From Kondoa subrosea (lineage: Eukaryota), in contig BCIN01000001.1 in the NCBI GenBank assembly GCA_039545335.1, forward strand, positions 2,979,136-3,043,135: DNA of 64,000 nt, written 5' to 3'. Each line of letters begins with the position of its first letter. The stretch's first letter is position 1. This document shows positions 25,939 to 32,538 of the stretch, piece after piece. The notes under the pieces were generated by a model. It was not told the origin of the DNA. It saw nothing but the letters and a program-made list of their open reading frames with translations, and searched no databases. The position numbers and the translations under genes were made by a program.

Positions 25939-28900
25939 ATGGACGCCTTACGTCTGCCTCAGCACTACTCAGGCGAGCCCAAGGCTCCTCACTTTCGAGG
26001 CATAACCTTGGGCAGATTGGACAACTTCGAAGGGGGCCAGTATTCCAACATCAATCTGAGTTCTGTATTGTTCGAGACTCGTTCAGATTCGTCAGAAGTC
26101 ATCTCTCTATCTGTTTGGCATGCGCCAGGTGTGTAATCGAGCTGGAGGATTGTCAACAATGCTGACGTTTGCACGGATCAAGGTCGAAGTAAACCTACTT
26201 GTGCGTAGGACCTTCATAATCTGAGCTGTTGTATTTAGCTAAGGTCGTTGGTCCCTCGTACAGTCGAAGAAGCTACTCGAGCCAAGTATGGACCGCTCAA
26301 GAAGGGAGATAGTTTTGGCCCGTCATGGACAAATCACTGGGTCAAGTGCTCCATCAAAGTACCTAGAGAATGGAAAGAGAAAGAACGGATTCAGTTAGAG
26401 TTTGATCCTAGTTGCGAAGCTATGATCTACAATCTTGAAGGTTTACCTCTTCAAGGTATTACGGGAGGCTTTGGAGGCGACAGAAGAGTCGAATTCATCT
26501 TACCTGATAAGGCTCGAGGTTTCACGTACCAGGCAAGCAGGAGACTGCCTGACGTCTTAGCATATGCTGATGTTGGCCAATCCTTCTTTTGCAGATATAC
26601 ATCGAGTATGTACCCTATCCTACCCATGAATCAGTCTCATCCTAGCTCTTAGAGTTACCTGTAACGCTATGTTCGGCCTAGGTCCAATGCAAGGGGATGC
26701 AGATTTCGAAGATCGCACTTTCCAGCTCAATTCCGCTGATTTGGTCGTACCTCGAATGCAAGCTTGGCATCTACTATGGGATTTCCGCGTTATCAAAGAT
26801 CTGGCTCGCAATATGCCAGATAATTCTGCACTTCAACATACCGCTTTATCGACAGCAAATGAAATGATGAATGTTTTCAAGCACGATGATCTTTCAACCA
26901 TTGCTAAAGCACGCAAAATAGCAGAACGTATTCTAGGTGAAGGCTGGTCGAAGAAGGGAGCCGACATTTACAAGACCAAAGAAGGGACCGCTCTACCAGA
27001 ATGTTTTGCAATCAGTAATTGTCATATAGATACTGCTTGGTGAGTGGCAGCCTGGATCACACCTTTCTTTGTTCGCTTATCGTTGTGCTCATCTTCTATA
27101 GGCTATGGCCATTTTCGGCTACTCAACAGAAAGTTGCGCGATCTTGGTCCACTCAAATAGATCTGATGAATCGCTACCCTGAACATCGTTTCGCCTGTTC
27201 GCAAGCCCAACAGTTCAAGTGGCTTGAACAGCTCTACCCTTCACTGTTCGAAGTCGTCAAGGAAAAAGTCGCATCAGGCCAATTCCGTAAGTCAACAGCC
27301 TCTTCAGTAGTTACAATGGTCGCTCATGTGTGCGGGCAGAGCCAATCGGCGGCTGTTGGGTTGAGATGGATACAAACATGGTGCGTATCAAGGCTTCTTG
27401 TGCTGTATAGGGCTCAAGAAGATTGGGTTGCCCACAGCCCTCCGGTGAAGCACTTTGCAGACAGTTCGCTTATGGTCAACGATTCTTCAAATCTCGCTTT
27501 GGCAAGATCTGCGAAACTTTTTGGCTACCCGATTCCTTTGGCTACTCTTCTCAATTACCTCAATTAGCTAGATTGGCGGGCATGAACAATTTCTTCACTC
27601 AGAAATTGTCCTGGTCGCAGTTCAATAATTTCCCTCATACTACTTTCAAATGGCTTGGGTTGGACGGAAGTCAGATCTTGACTCATTTACCACCTGTCAA
27701 TACCTATACAGCTCAAGCTACAGTATCGGACGTGAAAGTCACTATTTCAGGTCACAAGAGTTTAGAACAGACCAGTCTAGGGCTTCTACCTTTCGGTAAT
27801 GGTGATGGCGGAGGAGGAGCGCTCGCACCTATGTTGGAGAGTTTGAGGAGAATCAGAGCGGCTGCTGATGAGAATCGAGAGCTACCGAAAGTTGATGTTG
27901 GGCATTCAGTCGAAAACTTCTTTGCTGAGATCCTGAAGACTACCAATGGAGGCAAAGATCTAGTTACCTGGTCCGGCGAACTTTATCTTGAAGTGAGAAT
28001 CACCTATACTGCTGTTGACCACCCAGCTCATAGAATGAAATAGTACCATCGCGGCACTTACACTTCTCATGCATCAATTAAGAACCATAACCGCAAATCC
28101 GAGATCTTGATGCTGGACATCGAGCGGATCGCTACTTTCGCTTCCGTTGCTAGCATCATGGGTAAAACTGCTTCACCTTATGTTTACCCTAAAGATGAGT
28201 TAGACAAACTTTGGGAAGATGTCTTGCTTTGCCAGTTCCATGATGTTGTAAGGTGTCCTTTGTCTTCATTTCTATTCTGGCTCAAAATTAAGGTAGCTCC
28301 CTGGTTCCGCCATCGAAATGGTTTACGAAGATGCTGAACGCAAATATGCAAACGTAGCGACAGAAGGACAAAAGTTACTATCAACCGCTGTCAAAGCTCT
28401 GATGCCTTCCTCTAAACCTCTACCAACTAAATCCCTTTTCGACGCGCAAAACAAGCCTTTTGCTATTAACACTCTCAATACGCCCAGATTAGAGGTCGTT
28501 ACCGTTGATGGACCAGTCAAACATGCGGCACTGGAAGATGTCGATGGATCTGGCATCATGACACTTGTTCGCCCTTCGAAAGGCAAACTCATGAGCCCGT
28601 CTAGTGAGCTAAATCATCTTATAATACGATACAATGGAAAGTCTCATTCGACGTACAGCTCTGACCAAAGGAGATGATGGATCGTACTGTATGGGCAATG
28701 GCGTACTCACTGTATGCATTTCGAAAGATGGCAGAATTACCAGCATCAAGGATTTGACAGAGGAGTGAGTAAGACGTCGTATCAGTACGGTCCTTACTGA
28801 TTGTATATTAGTCGAGAAATCCTTGACACCAACTTTACTGCCGGCTTCGTCATCTACGAAGACAGACCAAAGTGCGTTGAGTGCTCTATTTGTGTTGACG

Positions 28901-30303
28901 AGACTGATGCATCGACATAACAGCGACTATGATGCTTGGGATGGTGAGTCATCAGCTGAACGACGTGGAGGAAAGCTCAAATCAATTTGTAGTCGATATC
29001 GGTCATTTGGAAACTCCAACTCACCTCAAAGGCAAGATCTCAGGAACAGTACATGATGCGCTCCGCTCCTCTGTGACTGTAGAGATCCAGCACAACGGTA
29101 GCACGATCCAGGTACTTTGTTCTTGACCACTTCAGTTGTCTAAGCTCATCGCTTCGCACAAGTGCACGATCTCTCTCGATGCGCAACTCGCTGGCAAGAA
29201 CATGTCTGTAGCAAGGATGTTACGCTTCTCTAATTCCGTCGACTGGCATACAAGGCACCAAGTACTAAAGTTCGAAGCTCCTTTGGCTATTCGAAGCGAT
29301 TCAGCAATTTACGAAACCCAATTTGGCACTCTGTCTCGACCGACCCATCGGAACACATCTTGGGATGCAGCTAAGTTTGAGGTGGGTGGAAATTGCATTT
29401 AATTGAGTTGCCTAATTGCAACCTCGTCTTTGCCTACAGGTTTGCGCCCACAAATTTGCAGATCTGAGCGAGGTGAGCACCGTTGGTGATCTTATTACTG
29501 AGGACTAACGACGCTTGCAGTTCGGCTACGGTGTCGGTGAGTGTGATAGCGTGCTTGTCGTGTAGCCCATCTGACCGGCTCGCAGCCTTGATCAACGAAA
29601 ACAAGTATGGTTACAGCGTAGCAAACAACTTCATGCGACTCTCGCTTCTGCGCGGTAGTACTTACCCAGATAGACATCAAGGTAAATGCGTCTCAAACGG
29701 TGGCACGATTTCGATGGCTGACTGTTTCGTCAGATCAAGGGTCACATGTCTTTTCTTTCGCCCTTTACCCTCACAAACATCATTTCATGCATTCTGATGT
29801 ACCACAAATGGCTAAGCGTGCGTTCTCACTGTGATTAATCCAATGAATTCGCAATGATCAGATGCTGAACAGAATTCAACATGCCGATACATGTACACGA
29901 ACATAATGTCAACATGGAAGCTTCTCCTCTCTTCCAATCGCCTATCAGCATTTCTGGAGATCCTAACGTCGTGCTCGAGACCATCAAGAGAGGAGATGAC
30001 GATGATTTCTCTACTTCACATCATTCTAGAAAAGGAGAACAAACGGTCATTCTACGCTTCCACGATTCACATGGCGGTGCAGGTAAAGCGAAGGTTACTG
30101 TCAAGCTTCCAATCTTGCGTGGTGTAGTGTGCGATTTGTTGGAAAGAGATGTCTCAAGTTTGGCTATCAGTAGCACATCAAGCGGCGATGAAGATGTGTA
30201 TGAGTTTGAGATCCGACTCAAAGCATACGAAGTCAAGACTGTCAAACTCACACTGGATCCTTTGGCTATCAAAGATCTAGTGGATGATTGGACAGAAATC
30301 TGA
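25939..30303 (+). CDS. AMS1: Vacuolar/cytosolic alpha-mannosidase, glycoside hydrolase family 38 (class 2C)
   Basis: Motifs FGPSWTNHW, NCHIDTAWLWP, ACSQAQQFKWL, PSGEALCRQF, FWLPDSFGYSSQLPQ, FGNGDGGGG, GELYLExHRGTYTS, QFHDVLPGS, RPTHRNTSWDAAKFEV and LRLSLLR. No signal peptide. Confidence 0.97.
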
Positions 30304-30745
30304 GATTGAAATGCGAAATGAGCAGTTGTGTATAGATAGTCAGTAAATTATGTTCATTGCAATCAGCCTTTCCACTGTATTTCCTTCTCTCTTCTTCTTC
30401 TCTCTTGTTTACAATTAGAAAGCCCTCCTACAATTACAACATGATTCTCTGCTGACTTTTTCCAACTTTTTCCCAAACGAACAGCTCATACATATCCTAC
30501 AAACCACTAAAAGAAACACAACGGAGGGGGAGAAAGTAAACCATATTAAAAACAATGTGGGAAAAAGAGTGGGTGGGTGTTCCTTCAGTCCCATTATTCC
30601 CCCTTTTCCTTTCAAAAAGTCGAAACCGGGAGCCGAACTAAGCGAAGATGACGGGATAATCCATTCCAGAGTTGACGGACACTGGATGATTCATTCCACT
30701 ATCGTACCGAATGAGAAATGATCACTCTTCAAGGCATTTTAAAAC

Positions 30746-31860
30746 TCACTTCATGCCGAAATTGTACGCAGGCCAATTAGGCAACATGCTCATGTTCAAC
30801 TGCTGCTGCTGCTGCTGCTGATGAACGGCAGCTTGATGTTGCTGCTGCATTGTAAAGGCCATTAGGTAGTTTGGATCGTAAGCAGCCAAAGGATGAGCTG
30901 CGGCTGGTAGACCTAAATGGAATGGCATGCCGCTGACCGGTAGAGCTGATGCAGAAGTGACTGAAGCATTAGTGTTGCCGATGACGGGAGTAGGCGTAGT
31001 ATTGTCGGCTGCTGTTGGAATTGGTAATGGCGAATCATTGGCACTTCGAGCAAAGAGAGCGTTGAAAGCTGGGTTGACGCCAGCAGCGAGAGCTTGAACG
31101 CTTGACATGGGAGAAGTGTCGAAAGATGCAGAGCTAGCTGGAGAGCAGCCAAGGATAGAAGAGGCAGAAAGAGAGGAAGCAGAATCATCGAAAGAGTTGA
31201 ACCTTTCGCGCCCAACGTGGACTGGAGAACGTTGTTGTGCTTGACCAATGGTGATAGGAGAAGCAATAGCCGGTGCGGGAGCCATGCCCAATTTTGCTCT
31301 AAGTTCCTCAACTTCCCTTCTCAAGTTTGCATTCTCTTCCCGCAAAGCTCTTTCACGATCTTCCGACTGGTACACATATTCCAGAGCTGTACCGATACGA
31401 CCTAGAATGAGCCAAAACACATGCATAGTCGATTCAGACATACATTTGGCAACAATGGTAGATTTCGATGGCCTTTTGACAGAAGCCATAGTTGGCAACG
31501 CAGCAGCCAATTCCATGAACCGACCATTCAAGCCTAGCATAAATACAATTCAGTAAAAGTTATGCAACACATTAAAATAGACGCACTTTCTCTACGAGCA
31601 CGTTCAACAGAGTTGTGTTTAGCCCTTCTTTCAACGGTACTAGGAGGTCTCTTGCTCTTCTTCTTTGGCTCTTCTTCTGCTCCTCCACCTAATACACCTT
31701 CTTCTGATTCATTTACGCCTCCGCCACTGAGATTAAGCGAATTAGAATGTTCTTCTTGACCATGGAAATCGTGGTCGGATTGAGGTGAAGCAGAGTCGTC
31801 GTACGAGGAAGAAGGCATAGTTAGGCCATAGAGTGCATCAAAGTCATTGAAAGACGCCAT
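30746..31860 (-). CDS. bHLH(-zip) transcription factor, Myc/Max-like
   Basis: RRAKHNSVERARRE|xLNGRFMELAAALPTMASVKRPSKSTIVAK..ALEYV, followed by a coiled coil LREENANLRREVEELR and a Q-rich tail. Confidence 0.9.
30800..30820. repeat. (CTG)7 microsatellite encoding poly-Gln in the bHLH gene
   Basis: ctgctgctgctgctgctgctg. Confidence 0.85.
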
Positions 31861-32538
31861 GCTTGGTTTGACTTATTGAAATGGGGAAAAGGGGGAAAAT
31901 AAGGAAATTGAAGTGAAAGAATAACAGGTCTTCAAGATGATAAATGTTTGTTGTAGGTTTCTCGCGTAGCACAGCACGCAAGTCCTCCAAATGTAGACTT
32001 TGAAAGCTAGTGAAAGATTAGAGACACTTGTTGGAGTTTGCTGGTGGGAAACCGTTTCAGTATTTTCTGTTATCGCTGGATATGGTAAGGTCGCTGAAGG
32101 TCGCTGGGGTCGCTTATGTCGCTGGGTAGAAGGTGGGATGGTATATGCCGGCAAGTCGCGAGCCTGCACACAGGAAAGAAGGGCATGCATTAGACAGATT
32201 TCGCATTTTGGCCGATGTTCGTCTGGCTGGCTGGAGAATCGATACTCACGGTGCTCAAGCGTTACAGTACCAAAGGCAGGGGCGGAAAGGGAAGCGACGA
32301 AAGTTTGTTGGAGGTTGAAAGGAACAGTGTCTGGGGCAGTAGGGCGTTCTCTCGGAATTCAACCGGGTATATCAAACCATTCTTAAGAATAGAAACACTA
32401 AGAAGGTAGCTGTCTTTCATATGCTTTAGTCCTATGTAGCCTATCCCGAGGATACGATTGGCTGCAATCAAGTTTTTGCTATACTTAGTGAATTCCGACT
32501 ATCCGCTCAGGGCGGGAAGCAACAACTCTCCTTTGCCT

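Follow-up and report, generated by a model that had tools for sequence, protein, structure and literature searches.

A conserved C-terminal tryptophan motif on the α-mannosidase Ams1 of Kondoa subrosea and other basidiomycetes, a candidate Atg8-interacting motif

Routes of Ams1 to the vacuole and the tail of the Kondoa subrosea enzyme

How resident hydrolases are delivered to the vacuole by autophagy is a founding question of selective autophagy, to which answers exist for ascomycetes only, i.e., the receptors Atg19 and Atg34 and Nbr1. The tetrameric α-mannosidase Ams1 is an established cargo of selective autophagy. In Schizosaccharomyces pombe, its targeting by Nbr1 involves the ZZ1 domain and proceeds together with ESCRT (Zhang 2022). 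The FW domain of Chaetomium thermophilum Nbr1 strictly requires the N-terminal di-glycine of Ams1; this is the sole FW–Ams1 complex solved, and the accessible text of the same paper treats only the N-terminal di-glycine. [quoted passage not shown] In plants, the Arabidopsis endo-β-mannosidase AtEBM, a cytosol-made glycosidase of N-glycan catabolism, reaches the vacuole via autophagy (bioRxiv 10.64898/2025.12.09.693153, as far as its available text goes). Here we describe the Ams1 gene on a 64,000-nucleotide stretch of the genome of Kondoa subrosea (contig BCIN01000001.1 of assembly GCA_039545335.1, forward strand, positions 2,979,136 to 3,043,135), which was analyzed as a whole and is called the window below. 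The encoded enzyme carries a short C-terminal tail with a tryptophan motif that recurs in other basidiomycetes and may be an Atg8-interacting motif (AIM), for which LC3-interacting region (LIR) is another name.

The last-exon frame of the window gene ends with AYEVKTVKLTLDPLAIKDLVDDWTEI and a stop codon. Nucleotides 30274–30303 of the plus strand read GAT CTA GTG GAT GAT TGG ACA GAA ATC TGA, i.e., DLVDDWTEI-stop. The first-pass annotation had placed this tail behind the normal end of the GH38 C-terminal domain, where it can be read directly from the DNA. The tail comprises 15 residues past the last β-strand of the fold. According to the cryo-electron microscopy papers, models span the entire S. 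pombe Ams1 (residues 2–1077) and C. thermophilum Ams1 (residues 2–1079), and both enzymes are tetramers. All ascomycete Ams1 chains in our set end 0–1 residue past the same strand. Because the solved ascomycete chains end at this anchor, the basidiomycete tails are additions beyond the fold.

Close relatives keep the tail. The last exon of the window is 87% identical to that of the contig L031, 85% to P0244, 84% to the contig L032 and 66% to P0245; P0244 ends in VDDWTEI and P0245 in VDDWLEI, both at the position of the window tail. Codons of the tail were compared between the window, L031 and L032, with a 3-nucleotide indel accommodated. Over the codons of LVDDWTEI, the window differed from L031 and from L032 in the same manner, i.e., six codons were identical, two synonymous and none amino-acid-changing, and between L031 and L032 five were identical, three synonymous and none amino-acid-changing. 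The seven linker codons before the motif had one amino-acid change between the window and L031, three between the window and L032 and three between L031 and L032. Nucleotide identity to the window before the stop codon was 341/426 for L031 and 325/426 for L032; in the 150 nucleotides past it, we found 61/147 (41%) and 43/134 (32%), respectively. On this codon pattern, the tail motif is a genuine short linear motif under purifying selection. L031 and L032, both from the metagenome collection, lack every window intron that they span, in Ams1 as well as in the convergent gene downstream, and are most simply explained as assembled transcripts of close relatives. In these intron-less contigs the tail motif sits in-frame, i.e., it is part of the translated sequence.

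Distribution of the motif and its fit to LIR patterns

The comparison set of 123 Ams1 proteins joined five from one search with the 120 top-ranking of the 2492 that another gave; two were in both. The last β-strand could be located as an anchor in 114 of them; the other nine, fragments or fused models, were set aside. Past the anchor, W-x-x-[LIV] was present in 67/114 proteins and in 67/76 of those with tails of at least 10 residues, and all 67 motifs lay no more than 12 residues from the C terminus. Strict cLIR matches were found in 46/114 tails (0.3 in tails shuffled within their own composition) and xLIR matches in 43/114 (1.6 in shuffles). The density of cLIR matches was 46 in the 1884 residues of the 114 tails, whereas the bodies of the 67 proteins with the motif, 74,465 residues in all, had 15. 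The tryptophan, preceded by acidic residues or serine, is kept in both Pucciniomycotina and Agaricomycotina. The first-pass annotation had looked to a conserved [DE]xWxx[ILV]-COOH ending in basidiomycetes. Conservation of the W-x-x-[LIV] core in both subphyla bears out the general expectation, but the exact ending was found in only 11/114 proteins; [DE]xWxx[ILV] anywhere in the tail was found in 54/114.

Short motifs are common, and 10.2/114 shuffled tails are expected to contain W-x-x-[LIV]. It is nevertheless highly improbable that the tail is a chance or neutral sequence without function: the motif is several times more frequent than in these shuffles, its codons change synonymously only while the linker changes its amino acids, the position of the stop is kept with conservation lost beyond it, and the motif is maintained across subphyla.

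By group, the motif was found in 52/67 Agaricomycetes, in 6/6 Microbotryomycetes outside Sporidiobolales, where it is always at the extreme C terminus, in the one Atractiella protein (1/1), in 1/2 Dacrymycetes and in 7/13 proteins without organism name. It was found in none of the Sporidiobolales (0/11), rusts (0/8) and ascomycetes (0/5), nor in Mixia (0/1). Taxon labels were taken from organism names, with key genera checked in the taxonomy. A FastTree phylogeny of 103 rows was calculated with tail and N-terminal columns excluded. With a support of 99, the window protein was placed within the clade of the Pucciniomycotina, its branch being long (0.82), and presence or absence of the motif requires 15 changes on this tree. 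Many motif-less Agaricomycete proteins are sisters of motif bearers, and one such pair consists of two models from one species; the sister pairs P0029/P0030 and P0094/P0100 differ in the motif.

Gene calling contributes to this pattern. At the Agaricomycete-like locus L033 (3325–3480), the frame stops just past the anchor at a GT donor; a short intron follows, and ...KRESWVNV-stop is then read in another frame from a terminal micro-exon some 40 nucleotides long. A tag encoded in this way is easily missed in annotation. As open reading frame (ORF)-only or truncated gene calls lose a micro-exon motif, its true prevalence in Agaricomycetes is probably higher than 52/67. Among the full-length Ams1 sequences, several lie on contigs about 3.5 kb long, and these include both tail-bearing and rust-type tail-less proteins. 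Such contigs have no room for introns, which suggests that the tailed and the tail-less state both occur in mature transcripts. As a separate observation, the Butyriboletus roseoflavus model P0002 has the C-terminal two thirds of Ams1 fused to an aldehyde dehydrogenase. The join lies directly past S-S-W-I in the tail, and the fusion hence probably arose when the annotation read through the terminal intron.

The linkers between anchor and motif differ strongly from the motif itself. They vary between 0 and 48 residues in length and contain 87% disorder-promoting residues, compared with 63% in the protein bodies; mean pairwise identity was 0.10 for linkers and 0.59 for the motif 9-mers. These properties bear on a structural or intramolecular role, in which the tail would lie against the tetramer, control access to the active-site channel or act as a propeptide that is clipped in the vacuole. 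According to the cryo-electron microscopy paper, contacts in the tetramer are indeed made by N-terminal tails of Ams1, and the motif is preceded by a dibasic K-R that could mark a site of processing. An unconserved, disorder-like linker of such variable length would, however, be unexpected for a peptide reaching a fixed site on the body, and the ascomycete, rust and Sporidiobolales enzymes manage without a tail. We regard a structural role as improbable.

A Trp-anchored logo of 90 distinct motif instances defined the consensus. The tryptophan and an aliphatic residue (V/I/L) at +3 were each present in 90/90. Upstream, the logo has K/R at −4 and −3, D/E at −2 and serine at −1 in 64/90, with S, D, E or Q at −1 over all instances; downstream, it has V/I at +1, T/N/D/E at +2 and, at +4, D/E unless the chain has already ended. 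The Agaricomycete form is K-R-[DE]-S-W-[VI]-x-[VI]-[DE], mostly K-R-[DE]-S-W-V-x-[VI], and where Agaricomycetes have serine at X-1 the window clade has aspartate. W-T-E-I of the window matches the LIR core [W/F/Y]-x-x-[L/I/V], and DDWTEI fits the xLIR pattern. The iLIR paper contains the verified LIRs p62 DDWTHL, BNIP3 GSWVEL, NIX SSWVEL and OPTN DSFVEI, and its table has Atg19 LTWEEL (residues 410–415, C-terminal) and Atg34 FTWEEI; the two motifs that the first-pass annotation had named for comparison, p62 DDWTHL and the WEEL end of Atg19, are thus both in that table. An ankyrin LIR, considered as a close match to the window motif, was dropped since the cores given in the available part of a review table differ.

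Overall, the basidiomycete Ams1 tail motif is most likely an AIM/LIR, with a probability of roughly 0.55. Several points weigh against it. LIR-like patterns are short and often non-functional, and the iLIR paper reports many unverified matches. DDWTEI fails the strict cLIR pattern because it has threonine at X1, as does p62. The conserved basic residues at −4 and −3 of the Agaricomycete motif are atypical, as LIRs favor acidic flanks, and they may hint at another partner or at a kinase site. Microbotryomycete tails have glutamine at −1. The absence of the tail from rusts, Sporidiobolales and Mixia makes it dispensable in whole lineages, and Ustilaginomycotina, Tremellomycetes and non-Dikarya or early-diverging fungi lie outside the named Ams1 set.

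The extended consensus could also be read as a docking site for a partner other than Atg8, with candidates being another β-augmentation reader, e.g., SUMO with its hydrophobic-x-hydrophobic motifs next to acidic runs, an Atg11/FIP200-type claw, a kinase or 14-3-3 protein recognizing K-R-x-S, or a lineage-specific receptor. In Agaricomycetes, conservation exceeds the LIR core and runs from K/R at −4/−3 through D/E at +4. W-V-x-V with acidic residues resembles SUMO-interacting motif (SIM) patterns, and the K-R-[DE]-S-W context, i.e., K-R-x-S followed by a hydrophobic residue, resembles a basophilic AGC/PKA-type site. But the only invariants across clades are the tryptophan and the aliphatic +3 residue, which are the LIR signature. 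Moreover, a SIM does not require an aromatic residue, and W-T-E-I of the window is too poor in aliphatics for one; the K-R-x-S context is absent from the window clade, with D for S, and from several Microbotryomycetes. We hence consider a non-Atg8 partner unlikely. Among specific candidates, SIM/SUMO, kinesin W-acidic and peroxisomal targeting signal 1 readings were rejected as misfits by the invariant tryptophan, the aliphatic +3 residue, and the +1 position or the C terminus.

Gene model, feature coordinates and neighboring genes

The window Ams1 gene was modeled by spliced enumeration guided by homologues. A tblastn search with a basidiomycete homologue as query had located a series of short exons between about 25940 and about 30300. 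All 16 introns of the model are GT-AG and 47–111 nucleotides long, and the frame has no internal stops. The intron-less L031 has an unbroken frame of 747 codons, of which 670/747 residues equal the window model; it ends with DPLAIKGLVDDWTEI and a stop codon, the tail having no hidden intron. L031 placed the introns 28604–28658 and 28892–28992, and because it matches exons 6–17, the 3' half of the model is confirmed. The last intron (29818–29872, GTGCGT...AACAG) is absent from both L031 and L032. Exons 1–5 and the start codon are placed on homology only. Coordinates are given in Table 1.

By its sequence, the gene is the orthologue of fungal Ams1 of the GH38 class (Ams1/MAN2C1 type). Pfam matched Glyco_hydro_38N (PF01074) on the window exons with an E-value of 2.5e-48, and the Glyco_hydro38C2 match ends 19 residues upstream of the stop. 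In the 90% identical L031 ORF, PF01074, PF09261, PF07748 and PF17677 were all matched, and GH38 families of these types were found in 120/120 homologues (the best 120 of 2492). The window protein covers 1086/1129 reference positions and is at most 54% identical to any row of the tree. NCHIDTAW lies at the end of exon 3, with H288, I289 and D290 invariant in the homologue alignment; we take the H-I-D-T-A-W region to be the metal-binding and catalytic motif, its catalytic role being known from the literature. A signal peptide is not apparent, as hydrophobic runs within the first 45 residues reach three residues at most, by a crude check made with the start codon placed by homology.

Table 1. Coordinates in the window of the Ams1 gene and of the elements of its C-terminal end.
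Feature	Position	Strand	Remark
Ams1-type GH38 α-mannosidase gene	25939..30303	+	17 exons; coding sequence 3357 nt; 1118 aa
Ams1 N terminus MDALRLP...	25939..25959	+	without Met-Gly-Gly; start inferred by homology
Exons 1–6	25939-26132, 26244-26525, 26635-27039, 27102-27286, 27340-27380, 27438-27992	+	
Exons 7–12	28044-28247, 28297-28603, 28659-28764, 28812-28891, 28993-29111, 29163-29381	+	
Exons 13–17	29440-29472, 29521-29536, 29586-29681, 29734-29817, 29873-30303	+	
Last exon: C-terminal β-sandwich, tail, stop codon	29873..30303	+	uninterrupted in L031 and L032 over the junction and to the end of the tail
Glyco_hydro38C2 (PF17677) match	29965..30243	+	E 1.7e-12; profile 1-72 of 72; residues 32-124 of the translation of 29872-30300
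Last β-strand YEVKTVKLTL (anchor)	30226..30255	+	
Variable linker DPLAIKD	30256..30276	+	
Conserved motif LVDDWTEI	30277..30300	+	core W-T-E-I 30289-30300; Trp codon 30289-30291
Stop codon TGA	30301..30303	+	position kept; TAA in both L031 and L032

Downstream of Ams1, a convergent gene (30746–32358, minus strand) encodes a Gln-rich basic helix-loop-helix (bHLH) transcription factor; its HLH domain was matched with an E-value of 2e-11 in the intron-less ORF of a relative, and its stop lies about 440 nucleotides from that of Ams1. L031 (1–3939) and L032 (1–2263) align with window positions 27441–32163 and span both genes without introns. They resemble transcripts merged where convergent 3' ends overlap; alternatively, they may stem from an intron-poor relative. 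Other genes in the window between 4563 and 61671 encode an ATP-dependent DNA ligase, a sugar transporter, a Ste24-type CAAX protease, malic enzyme, a fatty-acid hydroxylase, a BRCA2-OB fragment, a DHX29/RWD helicase and a PHD-SET protein. These neighbors are ordinary housekeeping genes, and a Pfam scan of the window found no autophagy genes.

Possible role of the tail in delivery and comparison with known systems

If the tail is an AIM, a mechanism can be proposed. The 15 residues would form a flexible linker bearing the AIM, i.e., acidic residues, tryptophan, two further residues and isoleucine at the free C terminus. As Ams1 is tetrameric in the solved fungi, four tails could be displayed per particle. 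On a growing isolation membrane, the Trp/Ile pair of each tail would fill both hydrophobic pockets in the LIR-docking site of lipidated Atg8, and the four copies would provide avidity for membrane-clustered Atg8. In this way, autophagosomes or Cvt-like vesicles would become enriched in the cytosolic enzyme and carry it to the vacuole lumen, its site of action. In optineurin, NIX and FUNDC1, serine at X-1 or X-2 is phosphorylated, which raises affinity (stated in the available part of a review); in Agaricomycetes, phosphorylation of the serine before the tryptophan could likewise tune affinity. For the Ams1 tail, binding to Atg8, avidity, phospho-regulation and a part in vacuolar delivery are all inferred from sequence.

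On the Atg8 side, the basidiomycete protein P0241, named Exidia glandulosa and belonging to a 100-member cluster, keeps the residues that are invariant across 34 eukaryotic Atg8 proteins and that we take to form the LIR-docking site. As an observation apart, P0241 continues after ...FG with W-E-E-L (residues 117–120), a propeptide past the lipidation glycine that Atg4 removes; the C-terminal AIM core of yeast Atg19 consists of the very same residues. Tryptophan directly after the glycine was found in 3/116 Atg8 matches with a conserved end, and the WEEL of P0241 could be a self-occupying or Atg4-guiding pseudo-AIM. A motif scan also listed 30 intron-less Atg8 homologues on giant-virus contigs of IMG/VR (L001–L030), many of which end exactly at the lipidation glycine while some are extended.

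The N terminus of Ams1 was compared as well. Met-Gly-Gly starts occur in 8/103 tree rows; 61 rows have the tail only, 34 neither feature, six Met-Gly-Gly only and two both. In the raw table Met-Gly-Gly and tail look complementary, but there are only three independent contrasts and the apparent complementarity supports nothing. His/Cys-rich, mainly His-rich, N-terminal peptides were seen in 50/73 Agaricomycete Ams1, and 29 of the His-rich N termini have cysteine within residues 2–5, in the style of M-x-C-H-H-H, where the ascomycete proteins of the set have Met-Gly-Gly. This N terminus could serve in metal binding or as a peptide for recognition.

The N termini matter for a further account of the tail. 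It may be a real AIM that serves as an auxiliary avidity contact, with Nbr1 or another receptor needed for recognition and for the Atg11/Atg1 scaffold. The accessible literature describes a wide occurrence of Nbr1 among fungi and names it as receptor of Ams1 for C. thermophilum and S. pombe. The Tulasnella protein P0113 and P0071 combine a Met-Gly-Gly start with a tail, and the conserved style of the His/Cys-rich N termini suggests that they have a reader. In canonical selective autophagy, scaffold binding is needed besides binding to Atg8. The window protein and most basidiomycete Ams1, however, lack the di-glycine that is strictly required in the solved FW–Ams1 complex, and AtEBM and Hab1 are, in the available texts, precedents for AIM-driven delivery without a canonical receptor. 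We hold the auxiliary role as a tentative possibility.

The first-pass annotation went further and proposed that Ams1 may act as its own autophagy receptor. In an extended version of this reading, Basidiomycota would manage Cvt-type delivery by a solution other than that of Ascomycota, and the AIM would be ancestral to at least Pucciniomycotina and Agaricomycotina, be displayed four times per tetramer, suffice for selective, Nbr1-independent delivery, have acquired a phospho-switch at the X-1 serine (K-R-x-S-W) in Agaricomycetes and have been lost in rusts and Sporidiobolales. This receptor-free reading is much less secure than the AIM reading itself, and as a whole we find it rather doubtful. 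An AIM alone recruits no Atg11/Atg17 scaffold and may thus not suffice for a Cvt-type pathway. A tail and a Met-Gly-Gly start occur together in P0113, a member of the Cantharellales, and in P0071, and a receptor could read the His/Cys-rich N termini of Agaricomycetes. Ams1 as an intrinsic receptor follows only if Atg8 binding is true, and if Ams1 has no Atg11-binding region, it would be a hitchhiking AIM-tagged cargo rather than a full receptor. A conserved LIR-type tag on the cargo would offer a concrete and cheaply testable answer to the question of hydrolase delivery for a whole phylum, and the tail could be a natural, short and portable vacuole-targeting tag.

The novelty that had been claimed at first stands in part. 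A full-text literature search, outside of which subscription-only papers and supplements fall, found no description of an AIM/LIR on fungal Ams1 or MAN2C1, but for plants, a vacuolar glycosidase, AtEBM, is reported to bear such a motif as cargo.

Among the known systems, Atg19 and Atg34 share with the window protein a C-terminal Trp-x-x-aliphatic motif, which in the two receptors follows a flexible region, and they bring the same cargo, Ams1, to the vacuole. In Atg19, multivalent weak LIRs give avidity on an Atg8-coated membrane (Abert 2016, available part). There, however, the AIM is on a separate receptor that binds both cargo and Atg11, whereas here it would be on the cargo itself. Targeting by Nbr1 also concerns tetrameric Ams1, recognizes a terminal peptide and reaches the vacuole lumen (Zhang 2022, available part). 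In contrast to the C-terminal, LIR-like tail of the window protein, it is the N terminus that is read by a receptor domain, as in the C. thermophilum FW/di-glycine complex. With the LIR of p62, DDWTHL, the window motif DDWTEI shares 4/6 positions, and the last, I for L, is a like-for-like exchange. The Agaricomycete [DE]-S-W-V-x-[VI] resembles the S-W-V-E-L type of NIX, BNIP3 and optineurin, with serine at X-1. These proteins and p62 are receptors for organelles or aggregates, and phosphorylation of the Ams1 serine is conjectured only.

Yeast Ede1 and Hab1 resemble the proposed Ams1 route in that the cargo or one of its components bears the Atg8-binding element. In Hab1, residues 1–42, with the AIM region and an amphipathic helix, suffice for delivery independent of receptor and scaffold. 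Both systems are degradative, for condensates and ribosomes, respectively, whereas the Ams1 route would be a biosynthetic delivery of a hydrolase (accounts of Ede1 and Hab1 as given in the accessible texts).

A close likeness is to AtEBM, as described in the available part of the preprint. AtEBM binds the LIR-docking site of ATG8 with an AIM of its own, W-D-E-V, which is conserved within its lineage, and it does not depend on NBR1. It is an endo-β-mannosidase of the plant kingdom and not a GH38 enzyme, and its AIM is internal (residue 198), in contrast to the C-terminal tail of the window protein. AtEBM showed no self-interaction in the assays of its authors, whereas Ams1 is a tetramer. Binding and trafficking of AtEBM were shown by experiment; those of the Ams1 tail are predicted from sequence. 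The parallel between the two enzymes suggests that 'self-addressed' hydrolases may have arisen convergently in plants and fungi.

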